In this document: positions 15,181 to 41,833 of the stretch, in pieces | How the letters are laid out: the number at the start of each line of letters is the position of its first letter | How positions within the stretch are numbered: position 1 is the stretch's first letter | Source: an uncultured bacterium | Lineage (GTDB): Bacteria; Patescibacteriota; Patescibacteriia; UBA1558; GWA2-36-10 | Assembly (NCBI GenBank): GCA_937870675.1 | Contig: CALMZN010000019.1 | Location: 1-42,045 of the forward strand | Direction of reading: 5' to 3' | Length of the DNA: 42,045 nucleotides | Position numbers and translations under genes: made by a program | The notes under the pieces: model-generated | The model's database searches: none | Seen by the model: the letters and a program-made list of their open reading frames with translations, nothing else | What the model was told of the DNA's origin: nothing

Positions 15181-15969
15181 TTATAATCTATTAAAATAAT
15201 TAGTAGCCGCTAATTTTGTTTTGAAGTGCAAGGCATCCTTGATGTTTAGATTTTTGGCGCCTTGCATTTTGAGCTGGTAGGCCAAAGTATTGCGTAAAAT
15301 CTGTGGCGTCACTTTGAGGCGTGGACGCAAAACATAAGCATATTTTTCAATGAGGCGTTCTACAGAGCGGACTGACAAATGGGTATCGCCGGCTTTTTTA
15401 CTGCGGTCAAAGTTGATAAATAAATAAGGATTTTTGTCACGGCGAAAATTTAAGTATTTTTCCAAGTAGTGCAGAGCGTAAGGTGGCAAGCTTAAATGTT
15501 TATTTTTAATAATAATCTCACGGCTCAAAAAATCCACTTGTTCTTTTTTTATATTGACCAAATCACTGACCTTCAAACCGCTGACATACAGTATTTCCAG
15601 CAAGGCCTTGTCACGGAAGCCCAATAAATTTTTTTTCTTCAAGGGTTGATCCAAAAAATTTTGTAGCTGTACTGGATCCATGGCTTTTAATCTATTTTTT
15701 TCTTGGGAAAGCAAGATAAAGGAATATTTTATATTCAAAAAATTTAAGTAGTTGTTGAGAATGACGAAGCGCAGATTGATACTGCCAATATTTTTTTGCT
15801 GGCTTAGTAAAAAATGGTTATATTTTTTTAAAATGTGGGTGGTGATTTTTTTGTCTTCGGTCCATAGCAAAAAATGTCGTATATGCCACAAGTAATTTTT
15901 GATAGTGCTTGGTTTTAAGTCGCGACTTTTTAAATATAGTCGATATTTGTTTAGAGAGGTTTTGTCCAT
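15181..15969 (-). CDS. tyrosine recombinase, XerC/XerD-like (short, 262 aa)
   Basis: N-terminal SAM-like core-binding domain (TIKNYLWHIRHFLLW). The catalytic region has FRDKALLEILYVSGLKVSDL (Arg), TPQILRNTLAYQL (the xxLR box with Gln in place of the usual His) and LHFKTKLAATNYF (His..Tyr). Confidence 0.8.
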   Translation of the reverse strand: MDKTSLNKYRLYLKSRDLKPSTIKNYLWHIRHFLLWTEDKKITTHILKKYNHFLLSQQKNIGSINLRFVILNNYLNFLNIKYSFILLSQEKNRLKAMDPVQLQNFLDQPLKKKNLLGFRDKALLEILYVSGLKVSDLVNIKKEQVDFLSREIIIKNKHLSLPPYALHYLEKYLNFRRDKNPYLFINFDRSKKAGDTHLSVRSVERLIEKYAYVLRPRLKVTPQILRNTLAYQLKMQGAKNLNIKDALHFKTKLAATNYFNRL

Positions 15970-15980
15970 GGTTATATCCC

Positions 15981-16027
15981 GTTAAATGCCGCCGAGCGGC
16001 AGCCGCGCTAAAGCGCGACTATTTAAC
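15981..16027. repeat. GC-rich three-way palindromic element flanked by GTTAAAT/ATTTAAC arms
   Basis: The sequence is gttaaat-gccgc cga gcggc-agc-cgcgc taaa gcgcg-act-atttaac. It starts 12 nt upstream of the recombinase start codon. Confidence 0.7.
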
Positions 16028-18972: not shown

Positions 18973-20334
18973 GTGGTCACTGAAAAAGAGCCAACCCAAA
19001 GATTTACTTTATTGCCAAGTAAAGCTTGGTGGCTTTTTTTGGGTGTTTTTATTTTAGGAATAGCGGCTATGCTCTTGATGCCCCAAAAATCCAGCCAGCC
19101 ACTACTCATGTATTTGCCCCAAAATACTACTTTTTATTATCACTGGTCTGATCTAGCCACTTACAAAAGCTTGGATATTAACAAATTGGCTATTATAGAC
19201 ACTACCGAGCCGACAGACAAGATAGACGAACTAAAAAGTTTGTTATTGGATGGCATATTTTCCACCAAAGAAGTTGTGTGGTTTAAAACTGATGCTTTGA
19301 GTGATGATAATTTTATACTGCGCTTGGATAATGCCCAGCAGGTGACCAAATGGCTGACAGTCAATCGCCCAGAGTATAATTATTTATTAATTGACAAGGA
19401 TATTTTGTTGATCAGCGCTGACTCGTGGCTATCCAGCCACTACAGTGAACAGCCAAGAATGGAAGTGGTTAACAATAATATGTCTTTGGGTATTAATATT
19501 TTTTGGTCCAAAAATAATACGCCCGAGTTTTTGTCGGCTCTGACTGAGTGGTTGAAACTAGACACTGGTTTGCCAAATATTTACGCCAATATCTACCAAC
19601 AAAAAGACGGACAATCAAACATCCATATTTGGCAGGTGAAATTAAGACAAGTAATCAATGCTAGTAGCACTGACGCTTGGTCAAATAAAGCTAATTTTCC
19701 GCTAGGTGCTGATTTGATTCTTGGTTTTGGTGAACACGCTCCGGACAAATGGCAAGTCATAGTCAGTCAGAGTATTTTACAGCCCTTGTTTAGTGAGTGG
19801 CCATATTATCGGCTGTCAGCCAAAAAAATAGAGGAGCAGATACTCAAAAATAATTATATTTATCTGGCCAATGACAAGTGGCTGATGGTTTCTAAGGAGG
19901 ATTGGCAGTCCAGGATAAATGATTGGGTGCCAAATCTTAATTTGCAAGAAACCAAAAATCGTTTACCGGATGGCACGGTTTACACCGAGTATATTAGTGG
20001 CCAAGAAGCAGTCATAGAAAAATTAAGCTACCAAGCCAAGGATTATTGGCATTTTAGCGGTCTCTATGGAGCGCAAATTGGCCCTAGTTACTATTTATCA
20101 AATAGCGAGTCAATTATTCAGGCCACTTTGGTCAGTAAGTATGATATGCAGAGTTATTTAGGTCAGTGCCAGTTAGCAGGGGATTATCAAATTATTGATT
20201 TGGTGCAGGTAAATAGTGCTAAAATCAAAGATGAAACAATTAAAAAAGCGCTATTAGATCAAAAAATAAATAATTTAACAGTATTTTCTTACGAAAATAA
20301 TCAACAAATTGGTTTTAAGGCCTGTTTTCGTTAG
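18973..20334 (+). CDS. hypothetical membrane-anchored protein
   Basis: 453-aa ORF with a GTG start listed and one N-terminal TM helix (WWLFLGVFILGIAAMLL). No recognised domain. Confidence 0.55.
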   Translation: MVTEKEPTQRFTLLPSKAWWLFLGVFILGIAAMLLMPQKSSQPLLMYLPQNTTFYYHWSDLATYKSLDINKLAIIDTTEPTDKIDELKSLLLDGIFSTKEVVWFKTDALSDDNFILRLDNAQQVTKWLTVNRPEYNYLLIDKDILLISADSWLSSHYSEQPRMEVVNNNMSLGINIFWSKNNTPEFLSALTEWLKLDTGLPNIYANIYQQKDGQSNIHIWQVKLRQVINASSTDAWSNKANFPLGADLILGFGEHAPDKWQVIVSQSILQPLFSEWPYYRLSAKKIEEQILKNNYIYLANDKWLMVSKEDWQSRINDWVPNLNLQETKNRLPDGTVYTEYISGQEAVIEKLSYQAKDYWHFSGLYGAQIGPSYYLSNSESIIQATLVSKYDMQSYLGQCQLAGDYQIIDLVQVNSAKIKDETIKKALLDQKINNLTVFSYENNQQIGFKACFR

Positions 20335-20364: not shown

Positions 20365-20521
20365 CCCACTGACTTTCTATGCCGTCATTCCCGCGAAAGC
20401 GGGAATCCACACTAATGTTATGAAATCATAGTGTCGTGTGGATCATCGGATCACCCGCCCACCATGACCGCCGGTCAGGCGTGTCGGGCGGGAGTCCGAT
20501 GATGACGGGAGAGTGTCAGTG
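20365..20521. repeat. GC-rich nested palindromic element forming a perfect four-way junction inside a terminator-like stem
   Basis: The outer stem ccactgac/gtcagtgg is flanked by an A6 run and a T6 run. The second stem is ccgtcat/atgacgg. Three abutting hairpins fill it: 20388-20403 (tcccgc GAAA gcggga), 20404-20442 (atccacac..gtgtggat) and 20443-20500 (catcgga..cccgccc..gggcggg..tccgatg). Confidence 0.75.
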
Positions 20522-20590
20522 GTTTTTTAAATCATCTTCTACACAGGCCTAGAACTTAAAAAATAGCCATAAATAGGCACTTTTGTGCTT

Positions 20591-20627
20591 GCACCGTAAA
20601 ACAGGTCGCGGAGCGACGTTTTACGGT
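20591..20627. repeat. long GC-containing hairpin (11 bp + 5 bp)
   Basis: caccgtaaaac ag gtcgc gga gcgac gttttacggtg. The core gcggagcgac is shared with the element at 22517-22526. Confidence 0.75.
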
Positions 20628-20655
20628 GTGGATAACTTGTTGATAGTTGTGGATT
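20626..20655. promoter_or_regulatory. two direct DnaA-box-like 9-mers
   Basis: TGTGGATAA at 20626-20634 is a perfect reverse complement of TTATCCACA. TGTGGATTA at 20647-20655 has one mismatch. Confidence 0.35.
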
Positions 20656-20724
20656 ATTTTGATAAAGTTGTCAATAATCAGAAAAATAGCTAATTATTTT
20701 TGCTAATTTTAGCAAAGTATTAGC

Positions 20725-20753
20725 TTTGACACAAAGGTAAAAATATGATATAC
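20725..20753 (+). promoter_or_regulatory. consensus sigma-70 promoter with extended -10, no ORF behind it for about 470 nt
   Basis: TTGACA (20725-20730), a 17-nt spacer, then TGATATACT (-10 TATACT at 20748-20753). Confidence 0.6.
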
Positions 20754-20759
20754 TTATAT

Positions 20760-21150
20760 TGTTGATAAATAAGTACCTTAAAACAATACTTTAGAACTGT
20801 ACATTACTTGTGATAAAGTAGTGTCTAGCTCTAAGAGCTTCACTGTTTTGATTTATCAAGCCACCGACGCTTGAAAAAGCAAAAACAAAAACAAAATACA
20901 AAAAGGAGAATCCTGTTGTCGGATAGGCAACGAGATATTTCCACTAAATGGTGGAGTTCTACAATGATTCTGAGTCGGAATGAATCACAATGACGTTTTC
21001 ACAACAACATATGCTAAAGTTTCAAGCCAATTGAACTTACAGACGCAATAAAAATGCGTCACAAGCTATCGTGAAGACGCTACGGGGCGCACTTACGGCC
21101 CACGAAGCTAACGCTATTAGGGGTGCTCGGATGCGTCCTGTTTGTTTTGT
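20760..21150 (+). ncRNA. candidate structured noncoding transcript or long leader of the DksA-like gene
   Basis: Lies downstream of the consensus promoter. Contains the closing stem ttgataaat (20761-20769)/atttatcaa (20850-20858), an inner hairpin agctc taa gagct, a CA-rich tract, the hairpin gacgca..tgcgtc (21041-21059), and a gacgc..gcgtc stem followed by ctgtttgttttgtc. No ORF of 60 aa or more on this strand. Confidence 0.3.
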
Positions 21151-21228
21151 CAAAATTTTCAATACCCCTAAATTCTTGCCAAATTGCCCGATATTTGCTA
21201 TCATTCTTTGGTAATTAAAACCCAAGCC

Positions 21229-25872: not shown

Positions 25873-26679
25873 CTAGGCGGCTCCGCCTTGGGCGGATATA
25901 ATCTCTCTTAGATGTTTTATTTTGGTAGTTTTTTTACTCTTGATATCCACTTCTAATAATAAAGCATTTATTTCAATTTGGCTAGCCATGGGTATTTCAT
26001 GATTGATCGGAGAATCAGTTAAAAATTTTTCAATTATTACTTCCTTGTCTATGCCGATGACTGATGGGTAAGCGCCGACCATACCCACGTCAGTGATATA
26101 ACCAGTGCCACTAGGCAAAATTTGGGCATCAGCAGTTGGCACATGAGTATGAGTGCCCATGACAACAGCTACTTGGCCATCTAAGAAAAATCCCATAGCT
26201 TTTTTTTCACTGGTCAGCTCAGCGTGTATATCAACTAAGATAAGGTGGTCATGAATTTCTGGCAACATATCGCGGATTGCTAAAAAAGGATTAGTAATTG
26301 TTTCGTCTTTCATCATACCCTCGCCCAAAACACTGACCACAGCAATCTTGGTTTTTTTTATTTCAATTTCTTGCCAGCGATGTTCAGTAATAGTGTGGGC
26401 ATCATTGATCGGTGTGGCAATTTTTAGGTCAACAAAATTAGCCAAATCTTCTTTGCGCCAAGTATGGTTGCCACCAGTGTACACCCCGATACCAGTAGTT
26501 TGGATATCGGCCACTGTCTTGGTGGTCAGGCCTGAGCCATGAGCCAAATTTTCAATATTGGCAATTACCAAATCGGGCTTATATTTTTTTTGCCAAAGTG
26601 GCAAAATATTTTTTATACCCCGTCGGCCAATGGAGCCGACAACATCGCCAAAAAATATAATTGTTATTTTATCTGGCAT
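25873..26679 (-). CDS. ymdB: YmdB-type metallophosphoesterase (TIGR00282 family)
   Basis: IIFFGDVVGSIGRRGIKNILP, ANIENLAHGSGLT and GTHTHVPTAD motifs are present. Lies immediately downstream of rny, as in Firmicutes. Confidence 0.88.
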   Translation of the reverse strand: MPDKITIIFFGDVVGSIGRRGIKNILPLWQKKYKPDLVIANIENLAHGSGLTTKTVADIQTTGIGVYTGGNHTWRKEDLANFVDLKIATPINDAHTITEHRWQEIEIKKTKIAVVSVLGEGMMKDETITNPFLAIRDMLPEIHDHLILVDIHAELTSEKKAMGFFLDGQVAVVMGTHTHVPTADAQILPSGTGYITDVGMVGAYPSVIGIDKEVIIEKFLTDSPINHEIPMASQIEINALLLEVDIKSKKTTKIKHLREIISAQGGAA

Positions 26680-29929: not shown

Positions 29930-29978
29930 GTTAAAAGTTTAAAGTTAAAAGTTTAAAGTTTAAAATTAAAAGTTTAAA
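29930..29978. repeat. seven contiguous direct heptads GTTWAAA immediately upstream of clpP
   Basis: gttaaaa gtttaaa gttaaaa gtttaaa gtttaaa attaaaa gtttaaa. The run begins 9 nt from the clpP start codon at 29921. Confidence 0.85.
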
Positions 29979-30020
29979 GTTTCAGCCAGAGGCTGATCGC
30001 CCACAGGGCGAAAAAGTAAA

Positions 30021-31110: not shown

Positions 31111-31581
31111 TTATTTGGCATGTTTAATTTCATTAACTTTATTAACGACGTTCTTTAGTGGCAACATTCTTTTCCTCACAAATTTTTCAATATATATAAT
31201 AACCTCATCTTTTGCCTCTGGTGGACTTTGCGCTACCCAAACTGCAAAATTATACAATTCTGTGTCATCAGCAAATATCCATTTTTCATTCAAATATAAA
31301 AAAACTAATAAAGTAGTCATGGCTACTCTTTTATTACCATTTTGAAATGGGTGATTTTTTATCAACAAATAAAAAAGAACAGCCGCTTTTCCAATGAGAC
31401 CCTTGTAAAGAATTTTTCCATCGTATTTTAGGAATGGCATTGCCACGCAACTTTCTAAAATATTTGGCGTCCGTGTTTCAAATGGCGGGATTGGTTGATC
31501 CCATCTTAATGTATTTCTAGCCAAACTGTGGGCTACATTTTGTATAATCTGAATATTAATATTTCTAATTTGTTTTGACAT
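31111..31581 (-). CDS. doc: Fic/Doc-family toxin (death-on-curing type)
   Basis: The KNHPFQNGNKRVAMTTLLVFL motif (HxFx[D/N]GNKR) is present. 156 aa, starting 3 nt after a small HTH gene. Confidence 0.8.
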   Translation of the reverse strand: MSKQIRNINIQIIQNVAHSLARNTLRWDQPIPPFETRTPNILESCVAMPFLKYDGKILYKGLIGKAAVLFYLLIKNHPFQNGNKRVAMTTLLVFLYLNEKWIFADDTELYNFAVWVAQSPPEAKDEVIIYIEKFVRKRMLPLKNVVNKVNEIKHAK

Positions 31582-31584
31582 AAA

Positions 31585-31854
31585 TTATTCTTTACCTAAT
31601 TTTTGCAAAACACTACCATAATCATTAATAACCCTTACAACAGCCGTATCTATTTCTTTTTTGATTTTATCTGACAACTCTCCCAAAAAATAACTTTCTA
31701 TATTCTCATAAGGAATAATATAATTACGGCCAATTTTTTTTGCTTTAATTTGACCTTTTTTTATTCTATTAAAAATAGTTATTCTGCTGACTCCCAACAA
31801 ATCAGCGAATTCTTGTGTGGTGTAATATTTTTTAATTGTTATAGGGGTTTCCAT
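31585..31854 (-). CDS. HTH (excisionase/MerR-like, HTH_17) DNA-binding protein, putative antitoxin
   Basis: YYTTQEFADLLGVSRITIFNRIKKGQIKAKKIGRNYIIP. 89 aa, immediately upstream of doc, with a palindromic operator upstream. Confidence 0.7.
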   Translation of the reverse strand: METPITIKKYYTTQEFADLLGVSRITIFNRIKKGQIKAKKIGRNYIIPYENIESYFLGELSDKIKKEIDTAVVRVINDYGSVLQKLGKE

Positions 31855-34457: not shown

Positions 34458-35567
34458 ATGGAAATTCCCGTTAAAGAATTAAATAATTTGTTGTCAAAAG
34501 CTAATAATATTTTGATTACTGGGCAACAAGATCCCTCTATTGATATTGTAGCCACTGCTTGCGCTTGGCAGATTTTTTTGCGCGAACAAAATAAACAGGC
34601 CGATATTTGTTTGACTGGCAAATATCAGCTTTGGGATTTTTTGCCTAGCACATTGGCCATAAAAAATAATTTAGATGAGGCCAATAAGTTCCAAATAATT
34701 TTGGATGTAAGCAAGGTGAAAGTAAAACAACTTAGTTATGATTTGATTGGTGATGAATTGCGAATAAATATTTTGCCAGAGAACGGCAATTTCGAAAGTC
34801 GCAATGTCAAGACCGAAAAAGGCGATTTAGTTTATGACTTGATCATTACTTTGGGAGCGAGTGGGCTTGAGTCCTTGGGTAGCACTTTTTTTGAACATCG
34901 AGATTTTTTTAATAATACCGACATCATCAATATTGACCGCTCTATCTTGAATGAAAATTTTGGTCAATTGAATGTGGTAGAACTCAGCTCTTCTTCGCTT
35001 GCGGAAATAAGTTATTATTTTTTTCAGGACAATATAAGCAAAGACCTGGCCACCTGTCTTTTGGCGGGCATTATTAGCGCTACCAATAGTTTTCAATCGC
35101 CCTTGGTGACACCAGCGCTTTTGGAGATCGCTAGCCAGCTGATAATCAAAGGAGCGGCTCGACAAAAAATAATTGAAGAGCTTTATCGCACCAAGGATAT
35201 TGCGACGCTGAAAAATTGGGGTCGCATCTTATCTCGCTTGAAACAACGGGGGAGAATAATATTTTCCTATTTAGAGCATGGTGACATGGATACTCTGCCT
35301 CAAGATTTTCAGGGATTAGTCAAAGATCTTATTTTGTCCACGCCAGAGACACAAGTAGCCATAATATTTTATCAAGTAGAGTTGGAAAAAACTGAGGCCT
35401 GGATTTATTCTACGGAAAATATAAATGCTCTTGATTTGGTTAGGGATTTGAGTCCCCAAGGTAGCAAGAATTTGGTCAAATTAACCATTGATCATAATTT
35501 GGAAAAATCCAAAGAACTTTTGGCCACTAGAATATCGGAGGCCATAAAATTTTTGGGGCATAATTAA
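34458..35567 (+). CDS. DHH/DHHA1-fold protein with degenerate catalytic motifs (pseudo-enzyme paralog of NrnA)
   Basis: Same length and layout as the 30021..30986 product. DGD is replaced by SID (GQQDPSIDIVATA), DHH by DRS (NIDRSIL) and DTGGF by ATNSF, and there is no GGGH. ATG 34458 is preferred over the listed 34413. Confidence 0.7.
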   Translation: MEIPVKELNNLLSKANNILITGQQDPSIDIVATACAWQIFLREQNKQADICLTGKYQLWDFLPSTLAIKNNLDEANKFQIILDVSKVKVKQLSYDLIGDELRINILPENGNFESRNVKTEKGDLVYDLIITLGASGLESLGSTFFEHRDFFNNTDIINIDRSILNENFGQLNVVELSSSSLAEISYYFFQDNISKDLATCLLAGIISATNSFQSPLVTPALLEIASQLIIKGAARQKIIEELYRTKDIATLKNWGRILSRLKQRGRIIFSYLEHGDMDTLPQDFQGLVKDLILSTPETQVAIIFYQVELEKTEAWIYSTENINALDLVRDLSPQGSKNLVKLTIDHNLEKSKELLATRISEAIKFLGHN

Positions 35568-35672
35568 GGCGCTTCACAAAACACTAAACTTTAATTATAA
35601 TATCTGCATCAAGAGTATTTTTAAATTTTTTAATATTGTCTGTCGCTGGGGGGCATATAGCTCAGTCGGTTA

Positions 35673-35692
35673 CCTGCCTGCCGGCAGGCAGG
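35673..35692. repeat. 20-nt perfect GC-rich palindrome inserted in the D-loop of the interrupted tRNA
   Basis: cctgcctgcc ggcaggcagg lies between ggtta and gagc. The nested intact tRNA reads ggttagagc at this point. Confidence 0.85.
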
Positions 35693-35706
35693 GAGCACGA
35701 CTCTTA

Positions 35707-35879
35707 CCCGCCTGCCTAAGCCGAACCACCGAACTTTAATTTTATATTTTTGTATGGGTATATAGCTCAGTCGGTTAGAGCACGACTCTTATAAAGTCGG
35801 GGTCCCTGGTTCAAGTCCAGGTATACCCACCATACTTTTTTAGATTATATAATCCGCGGTGCTTAGTTCGGCGGGCAGG
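35707..35879 (+). mobile_element. 173-nt insertion in the anticodon loop, bounded by imperfect GC-rich inverted repeats and carrying a complete tRNA gene
   Basis: The left arm is cccgcctgcctaagccgaaccaccg (35707-35731). The right arm is cggtgcttagttcggcgggcagg (35857-35879). Its termini resemble the D-loop palindrome (ccYgcctgcc ... ggcRggcagg). No target duplication is evident. Confidence 0.5.
35756..35832 (+). tRNA. tRNA-Ile (anticodon TAT), CCA encoded
   Basis: Manual fold: gggtata ta gctc agtcggtta gagc a cgact cTTATAa agtcg gggtc cctgg ttcaagt ccagg tataccc a cca. The body resembles the bacterial minor tRNA-Ile (ileX type), but with T34 instead of C34. Confidence 0.85.
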
Positions 35880-35937
35880 TAAAGTCGGGGTCGATGGTTC
35901 AAGTCCATCTATGCCCACCAGCGGCGGATACATATAA

Positions 35938-36007
35938 CACGACTCTTACCTGTCCTCCGTAGCCGAGAGTAGCGAGGCGCAGGAGGATAAAGTCGGGGTC
36001 GATGGTT
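35938..36007 (+). pseudogene. partial third tRNA copy (positions ~24-55) with a 39-nt insertion at the same anticodon-loop site
   Basis: cacgactctta [cctgtcctcc...aggagga] taaagtcggggtcgatggtt. It carries the T-stem variant gatgg of the interrupted gene. There is no D-arm or acceptor, and homology stops in the T-loop. Confidence 0.6.
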
Positions 36008-36058
36008 TCCCGCTTTGGGCTGGGACCCCGCCGTAGGCGGTGGCAAGTCCCAGCGGGA
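36008..36058. repeat. GC-rich three-tier hairpin at the break point in the T-loop of the partial tRNA copy
   Basis: tcccgc tttggg ctggga cc ccgcc gta ggcgg tggcaag tcccag c gcggga. Confidence 0.7.
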
Positions 36059-36135
36059 CGACCAGCAAATTATAGACTGTTTAGGCAGTTTTTTTGTTTA
36101 TTTAACAGGGTGAATATGCTAGAATTAAGCCAACT

Positions 36136-38724
36136 ATGAAAGATGTCTTGGACAAAAAACTAGAATACTTTGCCACGCTTGAGGCGCTGGAAGTTTTGTC
36201 ATTGCTAGACAGCAGTGAAAAGGGATTAGCAGAAAGCACAACTCTGAAACGCCATGCCGCTTATGGCTACAACACCATTGAAGAAAGGAAAGAGCGCAAT
36301 GTTGTTTTGGAGTTTCTTTCATATTTCAAAAGTCCGCTGATAATTATTTTACTGATAGTGTCAGCCATCTCGGCTTATTTGGGTGAAATAAAAAATGCCG
36401 TTATTGTGGCTGTCATGATACTGCTGAGCGTGATTTTGGATTTTTTTGAGGAGCGAAATGCCGGACAAGCGGCCAAGCGCTTGAAAGAAAAAGTGCGCAC
36501 CATGGTCACGGTCATTCGTGATGGTCAGAAAAAAGAAGTCAAGGCCTCTCAAATATGTATTGGCGATATTGTTTGTGTCAGCGCCGGAAATTTGGTGCCA
36601 GCTGACGCGCGCATTATTGACTCCAAAGATCTTTATGTCAATCAGTCGTCTTTGACCGGAGAGTCCTACCCCAACAGCAAAGATAAAAATATTTTGCGTG
36701 GTCAGGAATTGGCTTTGGTGGACTTGAGCAACATAATTTTTGCGGGCACTAGCGTAGTGAGCGGTTCGGCCACAGCCGTGGTAGTCAAAATTGGCAACCA
36801 AACCGAATTTGGGCAGATAGCTGACAAATTAGCCAAAAAAGAAGAGAAGAGTGAATTTGAAATTGGAGTCACAAAATTTGGCTACTTCATAATGAAGGTG
36901 ATCATTTTTTTGGTGCTCTTTATTTTTTTATTTAACTCTCTAATCAATCGCCACATCTTGGAGTCATTTATGTTTGCTATTGCCGTAGCGGTGGGTGTGA
37001 CACCAGAGTTGTTGCCCATGATCATGTCTATCACTATGGCTCGTGGCTCCTTGAAAATGTCCAAAAAAGGAGTAATCGTTAAAAAATTAACGGCTATTCC
37101 AAATTTTGGTAGTATGGATATTCTCTGCACTGACAAGACAGGCACTTTGACTGAGGACAAAATTGTTCTAGTGACTTACACAAATTTGGCTGGCGAAAAT
37201 GACGAGCAAGTTTTGAAATATACTTATCTCAACGGCTATTTTCAAACCGGAGTCAAAAATCCACTGGACGAAGCTATTGTTAATTTCAAAAAAATAGCAA
37301 TTACTCATTACAAAAAAATTGATGAAATACCTTTTGATTTTAACAGGCGCCTGATGAGTGTGGTGGTTGATGGGGAGGGGGACAGGTTGCTAATCACCAA
37401 AGGTGCGCCGGAAGAAATTTTTAAAAAATGTCAGACATTAAAGCAAGGGAAAAAAGCCGTGCATTTTGGCAAAGTTTGGCAAAAGAAGGCCAAAGAATAT
37501 TATGAAAATTTAAGTAAAGATGGCTATCGTGTCTTGGCCGTGGCTATCAAAAAATTTGATAATAAAAAAAAGTCATACAGCAAGCAAGATGAGAATGATT
37601 TGGAGCTCTGCGGTTTTGTGGCTTTTCTTGATCCGCCACGCCGTGGCTTGAAACAGGTCTTGGAAGAATTGCGTAATGTGGGGGTACGCGTCAAAGTTAT
37701 CACTGGGGACAATGAATTGGTGGCCAGCAAAATTTGCCGTGAAGTCGGTCTGACTGTGCATGGCACTATCATGGGTAGTGAAATGGAACATTTGAATGAT
37801 GATGCTTTAGGAGCCATAGTAGAAAAAACAACTATTTTTGCCAGATTTTCTCCAGAACAAAAAAACAGAGTAATCACTGCCTTGCGAGCCAATGGCCACG
37901 TGGTTGGCTATTTGGGTGATGGTATCAATGACGCGCCATCGCTCAAAGCCGCTGATGTTGGTATTTCCGTCAACAACGCAGTAGATGTGGCCAAAGAGTC
38001 AGCTGACATTGTTTTGACGCACAAAAATTTGGAAATTTTGAAAGACGGCTTGCTGGAAGGCCGTAAGGCCTTTGGCAATACCATGAAATATATCATGATG
38101 GGCTTGAGCTCCAATTTTGGTAATATGTTTAGTATGAGCTTAGTGGTATTTTTTGTGCCGTTTTTGCCGATGTTGCCAATTCAGATTTTGTTGAATAATT
38201 TTATTTATGATTTTTCGCAGGTGACCATACCGACTGACAATGTTGATCAGGATTGGTTGCAGAAACCGCGTCGTTGGAACATGCAGTTTATCAAGCGCTT
38301 TATGTTGTGGATTGGACCTATTAGTTCAATTTTTGACTTTACTACTTTTTATGTTTTGTATAGTGTTTTTCACGCTAGCCAAGCCGTATTTCAGGCCGGT
38401 TGGTTTATGGAATCCTTAGCCACCCAAACCTTAGTTATTCATTTTATTAGGACCAAGAAATTGCCGTTTATTCAGAGCCGGCCAAGCAAATATTTATTGT
38501 TTAGCACCTTGACTTGCGTGGCTCTGGGCTGGATAATACCATTTACCGCAGTGGGCAGGTATTTTCAATTTGGAAGACCGCCCTTAGCCATGGTCATGGC
38601 TATTGCCTTGATCGTGTTGGTGTATTTTGTCTTTGTGGAAATTGGTAAAAGGATATTTTATAAAAAATATGATTTTGATATAGCGGCGCATTCTGGTAAA
38701 AAAATAGTGACCGCTAGTCATTAA
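36136..38724 (+). CDS. mgtA: magnesium-translocating P-type ATPase (MgtA-like)
   Basis: CTDKTGTLTEDK phosphorylation site, TGDN, GDGINDAPSLKAADVGISV, and a C-terminal NFGNMFS / LLNNFIYD segment typical of MgtA/MgtB. Confidence 0.9.
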   Translation: MKDVLDKKLEYFATLEALEVLSLLDSSEKGLAESTTLKRHAAYGYNTIEERKERNVVLEFLSYFKSPLIIILLIVSAISAYLGEIKNAVIVAVMILLSVILDFFEERNAGQAAKRLKEKVRTMVTVIRDGQKKEVKASQICIGDIVCVSAGNLVPADARIIDSKDLYVNQSSLTGESYPNSKDKNILRGQELALVDLSNIIFAGTSVVSGSATAVVVKIGNQTEFGQIADKLAKKEEKSEFEIGVTKFGYFIMKVIIFLVLFIFLFNSLINRHILESFMFAIAVAVGVTPELLPMIMSITMARGSLKMSKKGVIVKKLTAIPNFGSMDILCTDKTGTLTEDKIVLVTYTNLAGENDEQVLKYTYLNGYFQTGVKNPLDEAIVNFKKIAITHYKKIDEIPFDFNRRLMSVVVDGEGDRLLITKGAPEEIFKKCQTLKQGKKAVHFGKVWQKKAKEYYENLSKDGYRVLAVAIKKFDNKKKSYSKQDENDLELCGFVAFLDPPRRGLKQVLEELRNVGVRVKVITGDNELVASKICREVGLTVHGTIMGSEMEHLNDDALGAIVEKTTIFARFSPEQKNRVITALRANGHVVGYLGDGINDAPSLKAADVGISVNNAVDVAKESADIVLTHKNLEILKDGLLEGRKAFGNTMKYIMMGLSSNFGNMFSMSLVVFFVPFLPMLPIQILLNNFIYDFSQVTIPTDNVDQDWLQKPRRWNMQFIKRFMLWIGPISSIFDFTTFYVLYSVFHASQAVFQAGWFMESLATQTLVIHFIRTKKLPFIQSRPSKYLLFSTLTCVALGWIIPFTAVGRYFQFGRPPLAMVMAIALIVLVYFVFVEIGKRIFYKKYDFDIAAHSGKKIVTASH

Positions 38725-38759: not shown

Positions 38760-38835
38760 GCAGGTGTAGTTCAGCTGGTAGAATGCTTGCTTCCCAAGCA
38801 AGAGATCGCGGGTTCGAGTCCCGTCACCTGCTCCA
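38760..38835 (+). tRNA. tRNA-Gly (anticodon CCC), CCA encoded
   Basis: Manual fold: gcaggtg ta gttc agctggta gaat g cttgc ttCCCaa gcaag agatc gcggg ttcgagt cccgt cacctgc t cca. Confidence 0.88.
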
Positions 38836-39133: not shown

Positions 39134-41833
39134 ATGAATAGAATTTTAACAATCATGGCGATGTTTGCCTTAGTTTTTGCTGGTATTTCATCAAATCCAG
39201 TAATCAATTCAGCAACCGCCGCCACTAATTTGGTCAGTAATGGCGATTTTGAAACGCCAATAGTGATAAATTCAGCAAAATGGGATATTTATCCAAGCGG
39301 CACAACAGGTTTGGGCTGGACAGTGGACTGGATGCCGGGCCAACTTTCCGAATACGGTGGCGATACTCGGCCACAAATTGCCAATTTGGAATTGCACAGA
39401 AATGTGCTTGGCACCGACAATGATGTTGTCGGCGAACAATACGCTGAATTGGATTCGGATTGGTACGGCCCCAGCGATAGCACCAGCAACGAGCCGGCCA
39501 ATATTAAAGTTTATCAAACAATTTCCACTATTCCCGGAGCGACTTATGAATTGTCCTACGCTTGGCGATTGAGGCCAAGTGTCAATTGTTCAATGAAGGT
39601 CTGGTGGAACGGATCGGAAGTGGGCGCGCATGCCGGTACTGGCGGTAGCACGACTGCTTGGAATACGGTCGGACCAATTGAAGTAGTAGCCGACTCAAAC
39701 AGCACGGAAATCGCTTTTTTTGAAGACGGCAACCCTGATTCATTGGGGATGTTTTTGGACAGCGTTACTTTGACTTTGAAAGAATTACCTATTTGCTATG
39801 AACCGGGCGAATCTGTCTATGCTTCAGAAGTAATTGATTATGACCAGGGTTTAAGAAAAGATGGCACACCAGTAGTGGCTGCCCGTTCAATACCAGAACA
39901 AGGTCTAGTATATGAAGCCGCGGCCCTTGAATCAAGCTTTTTCAGCTTGGGTTTCGGTGGCTGGATTATCGTCGGCTTTGACGACATTATCGTTGACGGC
40001 TCGGGCGTTGATGATCTGAAGATTACCGAAGATACTTGGGGTAGTCCTTATCCTCTTGAAAAAGCCGATGTTTATGTAAGTCAGGAATTACTTTCCTGGG
40101 ATGATCCTAATTGGGTTCCTCTCGGAGTAGCTGATAATACCAATTTAGATCTAATCCATACCACTTCGGTCTTTGATTTAGCTGATGTCAATTTGGACTG
40201 GGCAAAATATGTGAAAATTGTAGACACGACTGATCCAGATTTATTTGCCAATATTCCCACCGGCGACGGCTATGATTTGAACGCGGTTGAGGCAATATCA
40301 GCCGGCTATATCGGCGAATGCGAAGAAGTAAACGCGGAATTGGTTGTTTCCAAGACCGTTGCCACCTCATTTACCAGAACTTATGATTGGAAAATTAATA
40401 AAACGGCCGATGTCTCGGAGATAACTCTTGCGACCGGAGAAATCTTACCTGTCAACTATTCTGTAAGTGTTGATGCTACTAGTTATGATGATAGCGATTT
40501 TGCCGTTATAGGTATTATTAGCATAAGAAACGATGGAACAGTTGATGCCTATATTACGGATATAAGCGATGTTATATCTAACAGCGCTGAAAGTGTTGAG
40601 GTAGACTGCGGTAATGGAGTTAGTTTTCCTTATACTCTGGCAGCGGGAAATCCTTTAGATTGCGTCTATTCAGCCAGCTTGCTAGATGGCACTGATCGCG
40701 TCAATACCGCGACTGTCACAGTTTTAAATAATGACCAGACAACTTCAGAATTTTCAGACACTGCCGATGTGATTTTTTCCGAACCGACAATTGAAGTTGA
40801 TGAATGCATTACCGTAGATGATACTTATGAAGGCGGACCGCAAGATGTTAAGGTTTGCGCTAGCGATGCGCTAAAAACCCTCACTTACAGCAGAGATATT
40901 GTTTATTACGATCCCGGAACATACCCTGTAGAAAATACCGCTTCTTTTGTTTCTAATGATACACAAGCAACTAGTAGCGCTTCTTATAACATAACAGTCA
41001 ATGTCCCTGTAGAGGGTTGCACTTTGACTTATGGCTACTGGAAGACCCATTCAATATATGGCCCAGCCGCGCATCCGGATGATGCGTGGGATTTGGTAGT
41101 GGATAATGGACCAGATAAGACTTTCTTTTTAAGCGGACAAACTTGGTATGATGTATTATGGACTCCGCCAACAGGTGGTAATGTTTACTACCAGTTAGCG
41201 CACCAGTATATTGCGGCTAAGCTCAATATTTTGAACGGCGCGTCTATCACGAGCGAAGTTCATGACGCCATAGTCGATGCGGAAAAATTCTTTAACGATT
41301 ATACCCCTGAAAAAGCGCTTGACTTAACTAAAACCAAAGACAAGGTAAAAAAGGATACATTGCAATCTTACCGAGCGCTTGCAACATTTCTTGACCATTA
41401 TAACAACGGCCAAGTCGGACCCGGCCACTGCGACGAACCGAGATACTCGCGTCTGGTGGAAACCTTGCAGGTTCCGGCAAATTCAGCGACTGGCGTTTCC
41501 AGTATGCCTTTGGAAAACGGAAAGGATTATCAAATCCGAGCCATTGGTACGGCAAACGCGGGAGATAGCATAGAATTTGACGCCAAATACAGTTTTCGCA
41601 CGGATTCAAGTATAGAATGGACCGATTTGGTTTCAAATTATGAAAGCCAAGGGTCAACATTGCTTGATTTGCAGATAAATAACGCTTCTCCGGCTTGGGG
41701 GCCGTATAACGACTTGCACCAATATCAGATAACCCATTCCGGCGCAGGAAGCGCATTGCAGTTTAAGATTTATGATATCTATTATCCGAATAATACCGGC
41801 TATTTAACGGTTGAAATTTACCAATTGGATTAA
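39134..41833 (+). CDS. large secreted/surface protein (899 aa), N-terminal DUF642/CBM-like beta-sandwich
   Basis: Signal peptide MNRILTIMAMFALVFAGISS..ATA, then NLVSNGDFETP...W...GW as in DUF642-type domains. Also CTLTYGYWKTH and repeated beta-rich segments. Terminator at 41852-41886. Confidence 0.8.
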   Translation: MNRILTIMAMFALVFAGISSNPVINSATAATNLVSNGDFETPIVINSAKWDIYPSGTTGLGWTVDWMPGQLSEYGGDTRPQIANLELHRNVLGTDNDVVGEQYAELDSDWYGPSDSTSNEPANIKVYQTISTIPGATYELSYAWRLRPSVNCSMKVWWNGSEVGAHAGTGGSTTAWNTVGPIEVVADSNSTEIAFFEDGNPDSLGMFLDSVTLTLKELPICYEPGESVYASEVIDYDQGLRKDGTPVVAARSIPEQGLVYEAAALESSFFSLGFGGWIIVGFDDIIVDGSGVDDLKITEDTWGSPYPLEKADVYVSQELLSWDDPNWVPLGVADNTNLDLIHTTSVFDLADVNLDWAKYVKIVDTTDPDLFANIPTGDGYDLNAVEAISAGYIGECEEVNAELVVSKTVATSFTRTYDWKINKTADVSEITLATGEILPVNYSVSVDATSYDDSDFAVIGIISIRNDGTVDAYITDISDVISNSAESVEVDCGNGVSFPYTLAAGNPLDCVYSASLLDGTDRVNTATVTVLNNDQTTSEFSDTADVIFSEPTIEVDECITVDDTYEGGPQDVKVCASDALKTLTYSRDIVYYDPGTYPVENTASFVSNDTQATSSASYNITVNVPVEGCTLTYGYWKTHSIYGPAAHPDDAWDLVVDNGPDKTFFLSGQTWYDVLWTPPTGGNVYYQLAHQYIAAKLNILNGASITSEVHDAIVDAEKFFNDYTPEKALDLTKTKDKVKKDTLQSYRALATFLDHYNNGQVGPGHCDEPRYSRLVETLQVPANSATGVSSMPLENGKDYQIRAIGTANAGDSIEFDAKYSFRTDSSIEWTDLVSNYESQGSTLLDLQINNASPAWGPYNDLHQYQITHSGAGSALQFKIYDIYYPNNTGYLTVEIYQLD

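Follow-up and report, generated by a model that had tools for sequence, protein, structure and literature searches.

Introduction

The phage GIY-YIG endonuclease SegB cuts inside transfer RNA (tRNA) genes and promotes the preferential inheritance of its own tRNA region (PMC13096335); it also drives recombination-dependent amplification of tRNA-segB units via microhomology (PMC13096335, citing Brok-Volchanskaya et al. 2008). The locus described here belongs to an uncultured bacterium of the Patescibacteriota: contig CALMZN010000019.1 of assembly GCA_937870675.1, 42,045 nucleotides (nt) long and hereafter called the window, carries at 35573-36095 an array in which a complete tRNA-Ile(UAU) gene stands inside the anticodon loop of a second, interrupted tRNA-Ile(UAU) gene, followed by hairpin-bearing pieces of a third copy. 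The array is probably a nuclease-free, decaying form of a nuclease-associated tRNA replacement cassette, with one live tRNA-Ile(UAU) gene and the wreckage of two earlier copies. In related loci a GIY-YIG gene is embedded beside tRNA genes, as in phages T4 and T6, and the layout and allele turnover are of the same flavour. SegB is a phage protein whose C-terminal region can be truncated. The protein of the relatives, in contrast, is UPF0213-like, only 82 amino acids (aa) long and encoded on the chromosome of Patescibacteria, and it hardly occurs in phage records; it has no known activity, and the window lacks the nuclease gene. Neither hairpins nor nested genes are described for SegB.

Short GC-rich palindromes have a parallel in mitochondrial GC clusters such as the yeast element GC42, which occur in an AT-rich genome, sporadically among relatives, and merge and nest (PMC4478555), and which substitute rapidly yet stay palindromic (PMC4478555). 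The hairpins of the window resemble these clusters as short GC-rich palindromes in an AT-rich genome (39.6% GC in the window) that keep their pairing despite substitutions; they differ in lying on a bacterial chromosome, in lacking target duplications, in occupying precise tRNA-loop sites in dead copies, and in their link to a nuclease/tRNA cassette. Double-hairpin elements (DHEs) in Allomyces and GC-rich palindromes flanking tRNA genes in Neurospora are likewise mitochondrial. Among bacteria, small hairpin repeats dispersed in the genome, sometimes within genes, include repetitive extragenic palindromes and bacterial interspersed mosaic elements (REP/BIME), Rickettsia palindromic elements, and Correia elements; unlike these, the window hairpins are 15-40 nt long, show no TA duplication and strongly prefer loops or apexes, and neither a REP-associated tyrosine transposase (RAYT) nor an IS200-type transposase was seen among the window proteins in Pfam scans.

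Integrative elements that target tRNA genes also bring a replacement for the essential gene that they disrupt; their integrase recombines at the 3' part of the tRNA gene and the att segment alone is duplicated, whereas here a whole gene with its leader stands in an anticodon loop or beside a duplicated anticodon arm, and no integrase is adjacent (the only tyrosine recombinase of the window lies 20 kilobases (kb) away). Sporadic presence among relatives together with exchange of flanking alleles recalls free-standing homing-endonuclease cassettes, with the nuclease gene beside its putative target in the relatives and not in the window. Literature searches on UPF0213 with GIY-YIG, and on nested or interrupted tRNA genes in the candidate phyla radiation (CPR) or Patescibacteria, returned nothing relevant; as far as these searches show, a tRNA replacement-cassette system of this type has no earlier description, and its parts are of known kinds.

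The Interrupted tRNA Gene and Its Empty Site

Orthologous loci were taken from public assemblies via the neighbouring genes (11 loci; designated by L numbers), and all array features are given on the forward strand. The outer tRNA-Ile(UAU) gene, of allele type B, is present in three pieces: the acceptor 5' strand, D stem 5' strand and D loop (35651-35672, identical to positions 5433-5454 of L006); the D stem 3' strand, anticodon stem 5' strand and anticodon loop through anticodon nucleotide 35, ending in CTTA (35693-35706); and the remainder from anticodon nucleotide 36 through CCA (35880-35920). A 20-nt perfect palindrome (35673-35692; half-sequences CCTGCCTGCC and GGCAGGCAGG) follows GGTTA in the D loop, and a 173-nt insertion (35707-35879) separates anticodon nucleotides 35 and 36. 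An earlier sequence-only reading of this DNA had reported these features of an interrupted tRNA, and all of them are present where it placed them. Joined together (35651-35672 + 35693-35706 + 35880-35920), the three pieces give a 77-nt sequence, GGGCATATAGCTCAGTCGGTTAGAGCACGACTCTTATAAAGTCGGGGTCGATGGTTCAAGTCCATCTATGCCCACCA, which ARAGORN calls as tRNA-Ile(tat) and which is identical at 77 of 77 positions to the uninterrupted tRNA gene at the orthologous locus in L006. The resemblance is therefore not due to chance, and the proposal that the mutually consistent halves come from a real gene is borne out.

The L006 locus shows the order IF-2, DHH-like gene, tRNA, ATPase, and holds one bare, uninterrupted tRNA-Ile(UAU); uninterrupted B alleles also occur at the orthologous locus in L014, L143, and L148, and the D-loop palindrome is absent from the intact B-type genes of all four. 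Comparison with these empty sites (L006, L014) shows that the insertions are exact at GGTTA/GAGC and CTTA/TAAAG, with no duplicated base. The junction TTA/TAA, fixed by the empty site of the relatives, therefore gives the anticodon TAT (Ile); a Val anticodon (TAC), which had earlier been considered as the alternative, is ruled out. As it stands, the outer gene escapes both ARAGORN and Rfam, and ARAGORN detects it once both insertions have been removed in silico. The outer gene is the resident allele of the locus, interrupted by exact insertions.

The outer copy of the closest relative, L141 (92% DNA identity), has acquired two further insertions: 24 nt within the D stem and, in the middle of the D-loop palindrome, a new perfect palindrome of 18 nt (plus 2 nt), by which the older one grows from 20 to 40 nt. 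The view that one tRNA paralog was destroyed by palindromic elements is supported by these extra insertions, by the uninterrupted gene in relatives, by the nested gene of the same anticodon, and by the single intact copy per locus; the outer gene is probably a pseudogene. Its flanks carry a GC-rich leader arm (tctgtcgctggg, 35639-35650) that pairs with the trailer at 35918-35928 across the CCA end; this arm pair also flanks the intact tRNA in L014 and L151, and is absent in L141 and L006.

The Nested Gene, the Third Copy, and Their Probable Transcription Unit

The 173-nt insertion consists of a left GC-rich arm (35707-35731), an AT-rich leader (35732-35755), the inner, C-type tRNA-Ile(UAU) gene (35756-35832), an AT-rich trailer (35833-35856), and a right GC-rich arm (35857-35879) that pairs with the left one. 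The inner tRNA is called by ARAGORN, matches Rfam RF00005 at 73.2 bits (threshold 29), and is identical in L141 and L001; it differs from the outer tRNA at six positions that form three compensated pairs, the compensation having been recognized earlier from the sequence. Its surroundings are homologous to other parts of the locus and its relatives: the leader resembles the promoter and leader of the locus itself (81% identity between 35724-35744 and 35579-35599), homologous trailers follow an intact or truncated copy in L014 and L143, and the right arm also precedes a tRNA 3' half in L001, L141, L143, L145, and L014. The first 18 nt of the left arm share 13 positions (~72%) with the start of the 39-nt hairpin in the third copy, and the 20-nt palindrome and both ends of the 173-nt insertion share the termini CCYGCCTGCC...GGCRGGCAGG, which form terminal inverted repeats. 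Inverted-repeat searches and the predicted fold agree with the earlier observations that the arms extend the pairing and that the D-loop palindrome is perfect. The insertion would seem, on balance, to be a self-contained replacement gene (leader, tRNA, and trailer) between inverted GC-rich arms of 23-25 nt. The inner tRNA is the only intact tRNA-Ile(UAU) copy at the locus, and presumably the working gene.

Beyond the outer gene, a trailer arm and spacer (gcggcggatacatataa, 35921-35937; the spacer is identical in L014 and related in L151) lead to the third copy, which begins with the anticodon stem 5' strand and the loop through nucleotide 35 (35938-35948); all sequence 5' of it is missing, and the truncation point is the same in L014. 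Its site between nucleotides 35 and 36 holds a 39-nt GC-rich hairpin (35949-35987; the same 39-mer occurs in L014), followed by nucleotide 36 on through the T stem 5' strand and the first two T-loop bases (35988-36007, homologous to taaagtgggggtgtgacgggtt of L014), a 36-nt double-hairpin insertion in the T loop (36008-36043), and an A-type 3' end with the remaining T loop, T stem 3' strand, acceptor 3' strand, and CCA (caagtcccagcgggacgacca, 36044-36064), which matches the 3' end of the intact tRNA-Ile(UAU) in L002 and L147. The sequence-only reading had delimited this copy at 35938-36007; the 39-nt hairpin at the same anticodon site stands, and the end point has to be moved, since the copy resumes at 36044-36064 after the T-loop hairpin. 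Judged from its sequence, the whole piece (35938-36064) is likely to be the 3' remnant of a still older gene copy.

A promoter-like site for the whole array (TTCACA-17-TATAAT, 35573-35601), which matches the consensus at 11 of 12 positions, is unchanged in all seven aligned orthologous loci (7/7). The probable terminator of the array, a short hairpin followed by a T run (36074-36095), is conserved as agactgYtt.ggcagttttttt and kept in L001, L002, L141, L143, L147, and L148; the consensus scan, which requires a stem of at least 5 pairs, passed over it on account of its shorter stem. With one predicted promoter and one predicted terminator, 35573-36095 probably constitutes a single transcription unit. 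The region 35630-36075 folds at -198.5 kcal/mol (z = -7.7 against shuffles).

Allele Replacement at the Orthologous Loci

Exactly one intact tRNA-Ile(UAU) gene is found wherever a contig spans the gene (window, L141, L014, L143, L006, L002, L147, L148, L151). Three alleles can be distinguished by their acceptor sequence (A, CGTCCCG; B, GGGCATA; C, GGGTATA); they have common D and anticodon arms and compensated differences in the acceptor and T stems, and they occur as intact gene or fragment in varying combinations among the loci. An intact C lies inside B in the window, L141, L142, and L001. L014 shows, in order, an intact B, a C that is truncated at its 5' end and holds the same 39-nt hairpin, the same right arm, and an A-type 3' half; L143 shows an intact B, the trailer, the right arm, and a B 3' half; L147 and L002 have an intact A preceded by the first 8 nt of C; and in L148 an A 5' part is followed by the nuclease gene, an intact B, an A 3' part, and a C 3' fragment. 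Since the third copy of the window ends A-type, the locus has been overwritten repeatedly, with pieces of the prior gene left behind on each occasion.

The window shares its nest with L141 and shares the arms and third copy with L014; this incongruence between nest and flank implies recombinational transfer of modules, and no single recombination event was found that derives the module order of the window from that of L014 or L148. From the left arm to the outer 3' end, the window and L141/L001 differ at 2 positions in 203 nt, against a synonymous divergence (pS) of 0.26 in the adjacent gene and 8% overall; compared with L014, the array modules are 97.7% identical and the flanking genes 90%. 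Measured by segment, array modules including spacers and arms (35568-35920 against L141/L001; 35880-36007 against L014) are 98-99% identical, the flanking genes 90-92%. The outer exons show zero substitutions between the window and L141; because spacers and arms are equally preserved, this preservation is not exon-specific. The low divergence of the modules points to recent exchange or, possibly, to selection on the whole precursor RNA.

Searches for similar material elsewhere were largely unproductive. Viral records scanned for this tRNA and for the right arm gave no match, and thus no sign that the alleles came from known phages; the 16-nt pattern GAGCACGACTCTTABS had at least 120 matches in metagenome contigs, attributable to chance, with none in a tRNA among the matches listed; and a scan of genome contigs for hairpin-interrupted copies yielded 14 matches, of which 13 were due to chance and one, L014, was real.

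A Small GIY-YIG Gene at the Same Locus in Relatives

In L002, an 82-aa GIY-YIG open reading frame (ORF) lies between a 5' tRNA fragment with a double hairpin and the intact tRNA. GIY-YIG genes occupy the orthologous position in L002, L148-150, L151, and L152; four lineages have the gene and six are without it. Three further homologs whose context was looked up (82%, 78%, and 68% identity) are all (3/3) located at the IF-2/DHH-like/tRNA-Ile locus. The ratio of nonsynonymous to synonymous divergence (dN/dS) in pairwise comparisons is 0.09-0.13, with dS above 1 and near-saturated; these sequence comparisons indicate strong purifying selection on the gene. Among solved structures, UPF0213 proteins without a known function come nearest to the 82-aa protein, SLX1 matches it faintly, and NCBIfam provides no name for it.

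L148 and the far more distant L151 share a composite of four modules: tRNA positions 1-43 with a double hairpin; the GIY-YIG gene; an armed intact tRNA, with leader and trailer pairing across the CCA; and tRNA positions ~27-76, whose anticodon and T loops carry double hairpins. Of this composite, the window and L014 have modules 3 and 4, without modules 1 and 2, and their leader (…tttttaatatt running into gtctgtcgctgggg) has a sequence consistent with a deletion of modules 1 and 2.

A related arrangement appears on an unrelated contig, L153 (IMGVR_UViG_3300025138_000201; 1235-1600), where an intact tRNA-Arg(ACG) adjoins a 43%-identical small GIY-YIG gene on that gene's downstream side; upstream of the GIY-YIG gene stand the initial 9 nt of the tRNA-Arg (8/9 matching) and a 16-nt CCTGTC...GACAGG palindrome (CCTGTCTGCTGACAGG), a type that has only five occurrences in 827 kb of unrelated DNA. 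A tblastn search of phage and plasmid records with the GIY-YIG protein gave three weak matches, and the one inspected was not beside a tRNA.

Two Families of Palindromic Hairpins

The hairpins fall into two families. Family 1, with the termini CCTGYC...GRCAGG, comprises the D-loop palindrome, the ends of the 173-nt insertion, and the 39-nt hairpin; the D-stem insertion of L141 probably belongs here as well. Within the window, this CCTG type is confined to the tRNA array. Family 2 is a 30-nt double hairpin in which TCNCCC-NNN-GGGNGA occurs twice. It occupies the anticodon-loop site between nucleotides 35 and 36 in L002, L148 (twice), and L151 (twice), and the T loop, behind its first two bases, in the window (36 nt), L143 (31 nt), L148 (30 nt), L151 (30 nt), and L014 (66 nt); the L014 element has an additional 34-nt hairpin nested at its apex. 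In this element and in the D-loop palindrome of L141, new palindromes have landed at the apexes of old ones. Across seven aligned copies of family 2, pairing is kept at 98.8% and six of the 12 pairs show two-sided changes; the covariation score is 0.476, against 0.165 in shuffles (0/500).

Family 2 is dispersed in the genome beyond the tRNA array. A complete intergenic copy (TCAGCCAGAGGCTGA TCGCCCACAGGGCGA) lies at 29982-30011 beside an AAAGTTT-type tandem repeat (~29935-29980), a partial copy at 25875-25896 upstream of the HU gene, and related hairpins at 15987-16020, a variant double hairpin directly upstream of the tyrosine-recombinase gene (15181-15969, minus strand), and at 20389-20404. 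GC-rich perfect hairpins as a whole are enriched about six-fold in the window, with 16 scan entries (~11 distinct sites) against 1.9 in Markov shuffles. The hairpins probably insert without target duplication, and mostly into loops or hairpin apexes.

Several known types of element were considered and set aside. The terminal inverted repeats would suit a classical miniature inverted-repeat transposable element (MITE), but the empty-site comparison shows no target duplication; an integron attC-type site is excluded by insertion points that fail GTTRRRY; and cruciform resolution as the source of the duplicated anticodon arm predicts hairpin-capped inverted products, not direct repeats.

Some further hairpins were observed in passing. 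After a gene ending at 20334, the interval 20380-20530 is a compound of about 150 nt with hairpins within hairpins, including TCCCGCGAAAGCGGGA, and the following ~640 nt (20540-21180) contain no ORF of at least 80 aa and no Rfam match at the gathering threshold; both intervals could be unannotated RNA or the debris of palindromic elements. In L151 (2310-2385), a 39-nt GC hairpin stands behind position 9 of a fragmentary tRNA, with a 20-nt direct repeat (gtcagtttcaaGGGCATATA) on either side, the sole insertion seen with something like a target duplication. A repeated trailer, ttcgaYtcYg followed by a 15-16-nt GC hairpin and ctYRctcatgRtc, occurs in L003 (a 72% relative; 2014-2100 and 2242-2310), downstream of tRNA-Leu and tRNA-Ser, and in L148 (3031-3085) after the C-type fragment. 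Other tRNA genes may have left these trailers as 3' remnants with hairpins, in which case the replacement process would extend beyond tRNA-Ile.

Interpretation of the Array

Taken together, the comparisons favour the interpretation of the locus as a replacement cassette that has lost its nuclease. The nuclease would break tRNA-Ile(UAU) genes, and recombinational repair would copy in a cassette equipped with a tRNA of its own; displaced fragments with anticodon- and T-loop hairpins would persist, perhaps because they are no longer cut, and recombination among the repeated tRNA segments would shuffle, nest, and delete modules. The version in the window would have lost the nuclease gene, and its inner tRNA would presumably leave the precursor through RNase P and 3' processing of the usual kind, with the outer halves not rejoined. 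Several observations weigh against this account. No GIY-YIG similarity was found anywhere in the window by tblastn, so that a past nuclease there would have to be deduced from the relatives and from a leader junction that is consistent with deletion and nothing further; the 82-aa protein has no known cleavage specificity and carries no DNA-binding domain, and the UPF0213 proteins nearest to it among solved structures lack a known function. If the nuclease cut intact tRNA-Ile genes, the adjoining intact gene should be a target too. A 39%-identical homolog in another record does not adjoin a tRNA, and the wider GIY-YIG family is therefore not uniformly tRNA-linked. The array modules are also far less diverged than would be expected of junk, a result that fits recent exchange and selection on RNA equally well. 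Finally, the account leaves the origin of the arms, and of a whole gene at a hairpin apex, unexplained.

In a broader and more speculative form, the UPF0213-type GIY-YIG gene and the two families of GC-rich mini-palindromes might constitute an undescribed mobile system that targets tRNA genes in Patescibacteria and possibly beyond (L153); this extension is doubtful at present. Such a system would break the resident tRNA gene in or around the anticodon arm and install a self-contained, GC-armed replacement tRNA gene; hairpins in the anticodon and T loops would mark the displaced fragments as immunity or recognition structures, and a nuclease-free nested module would spread between alleles by recombination, like an intron with a spare host gene.

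For annotation, the replacement-cassette interpretation means that gene replacement can give a bacterial locus the conspicuous look of a "split tRNA", and it identifies the real tRNA-Ile(UAU) copy, the decoder of AUA codons. For the biology of mobile DNA, it points to a conserved link between a very small UPF0213 GIY-YIG protein without known function and a tRNA locus, an association accompanied by the serial replacement of alleles and by elements that are the bacterial equivalents of mitochondrial GC clusters and double hairpins. Should the nuclease link prove true, the UPF0213-type family acquires a testable function, and selfish elements a new way of operating, in which a whole spare gene is delivered into the anticodon loop of an essential tRNA.

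The principal alternative regards the nest as an RNA device maintained by selection: halves, clamps, and hairpins would scaffold the precursor, with the outer halves remaining unligated, and would help to fold, process, or stabilize the inner tRNA (and, in the relatives, the nuclease mRNA) or prevent the near-identical fragments from mispairing with the live tRNA. Co-transcription of all parts from one predicted promoter to one predicted terminator, the very stable predicted fold (the z-score given above), the compensatory changes that preserve double-hairpin pairing, and the much greater conservation of non-tRNA modules relative to the synonymous sites of the neighbouring gene would all suit such a device, as would the fact that the fragments flanking a cassette always form a matching 5'/3' pair. 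Yet matching pairs are the trivial outcome of splitting one gene, and palindrome pairing can persist at the DNA level or through element mobility; moreover, the architecture is dispensable, given the bare gene in L006 and the quite different remnants in L014, L143, and L147, and it turns over fast in structure among close relatives. A selected RNA device is thus considered unlikely, although it retains some weight.

Tandem duplication by unequal crossing-over, followed by decay, with hairpins arising from slippage or template switching and the GIY-YIG gene as an unrelated neighbour, is a distinctly unlikely explanation. Direct repeats of tRNA segments would indeed ease unequal recombination, the palindromes nested at the centres of older ones in L141 and L014 resemble template-switch products, and the window is without a nuclease gene. 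The copies, however, are three alleles with compensated stem differences and not duplicates of one gene; a whole gene within an anticodon loop is not a product of such a process; hairpins of the same family recur at the same nucleotide positions in distant relatives and also in intergenic DNA, with the CCTG type at the GIY-YIG/tRNA-Arg locus; and the GIY-YIG homologs that were looked up share one locus across lineages in which the DHH-like neighbour ranges from ~50% to >80% identity to that of the window.

The sequence-only reading had also entertained a functional outer tRNA, matured through the long helix; in this scenario, some unknown bacterial route of cleavage and ligation would excise both the D-loop palindrome and the 173-nt insertion from the RNA. 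The perfectly preserved exons (77/77 against L006, with no substitutions relative to L141), the helical insertions that bring the halves together, and the pairing of leader and trailer speak in its favour, and invite comparison with the intron-containing, split, and permuted tRNAs of archaea, which share interruptions of the anticodon and D loops, complementary sequences that join the halves, and leader/trailer pairing. Splice sites of the archaeal type consist of two 3-nt bulges separated by a 4-base-pair helix. In contrast, both junctions of each insertion in the window lie opposite each other at the base of a plain, uninterrupted hairpin, which excludes a bulge-helix-bulge intron, and the insertion site falls between nucleotides 35 and 36, not 37 and 38; the locus is bacterial, an intact inner gene supplies the same anticodon redundantly, relatives carry the gene uninterrupted at the orthologous locus, the insertions vary between near-identical genomes (including 24 nt within the D stem of L141), and the preservation extends alike to spacers and arms. 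Pfam found no RtcB, splicing endonuclease (EndA), or RNase III among the 38 proteins scanned in the 42-kb window, and the ATPase gene has P-type ATPase domains only.

Bacterial group I introns include insertions in tRNA anticodon loops that can be mobile with a homing endonuclease (PMC3984707), and in its position the 173-nt insertion resembles these; unlike them, its Rfam match is a tRNA only, the insertion being itself a tRNA gene, and the hairpins of 20-39 nt are much too small for a ribozyme. A group I intron was rejected, with no match to Intron_gpI or any other ribozyme family in 35560-36140 even at E-values up to 10. A functional outer tRNA is therefore regarded as highly improbable.

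A chimera assembled from co-existing strains with different tRNA-Ile alleles would draw on the tendency of tRNA repeats to break assemblies (L001 starts inside the left arm; L144, L146, and L150 end inside a tRNA), but it is scarcely credible, given that unique arm sequence is used at every junction and that each junction is seen again in assemblies made independently in other runs and projects (L141, L142, L001, L014, L143, L145). Specifically, the junction of outer 5' part and left arm recurs in L141 and L142, that of right arm and 3' half in L001, L141, L142, L143, L145, and L014, the 39-nt hairpin in L014, and the T-loop hairpins in L014, L143, L148, and L151; because of this recurrence, misassembly of the array appears unlikely from the sequences compared. 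For metagenomics, the locus carries a caution, as it repeatedly breaks short-read assemblies of such genomes.

Genomic Context

The proteins of the window include RNase Y, PNPase, IF-2, RbfA, HU, ClpP, and extracytoplasmic function (ECF) sigma factors according to Pfam scans; this gene content marks the window as bacterial DNA, in agreement with the bacterial context that had been proposed on account of RNase Y, PNPase, IF-2, and HU. The best named relatives of the Mg-ATPase gene adjoining the array are from Patescibacteria; an exact look-up of the window's own ATPase in protein records gave no match. ARAGORN and Rfam find only two tRNAs in the window, the inner tRNA-Ile(UAU) and a tRNA-Gly(CCC) at 38760.

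Some neighbouring genes deserve mention. The conserved 369-aa neighbour of the array (34458-35567) has no Pfam match in the window, and some of its homologs are labelled DHH or nanoRNase-like; an 899-aa protein downstream of the array (39134-41833) has no Pfam domain. A protein of the Fic/DOC family (31111-31854, minus strand) and a helix-turn-helix (HTH) protein upstream of it are probably a toxin-antitoxin pair; their genes sit between the rbfA and DHH/DHHA1 genes, which adjoin each other in L006.

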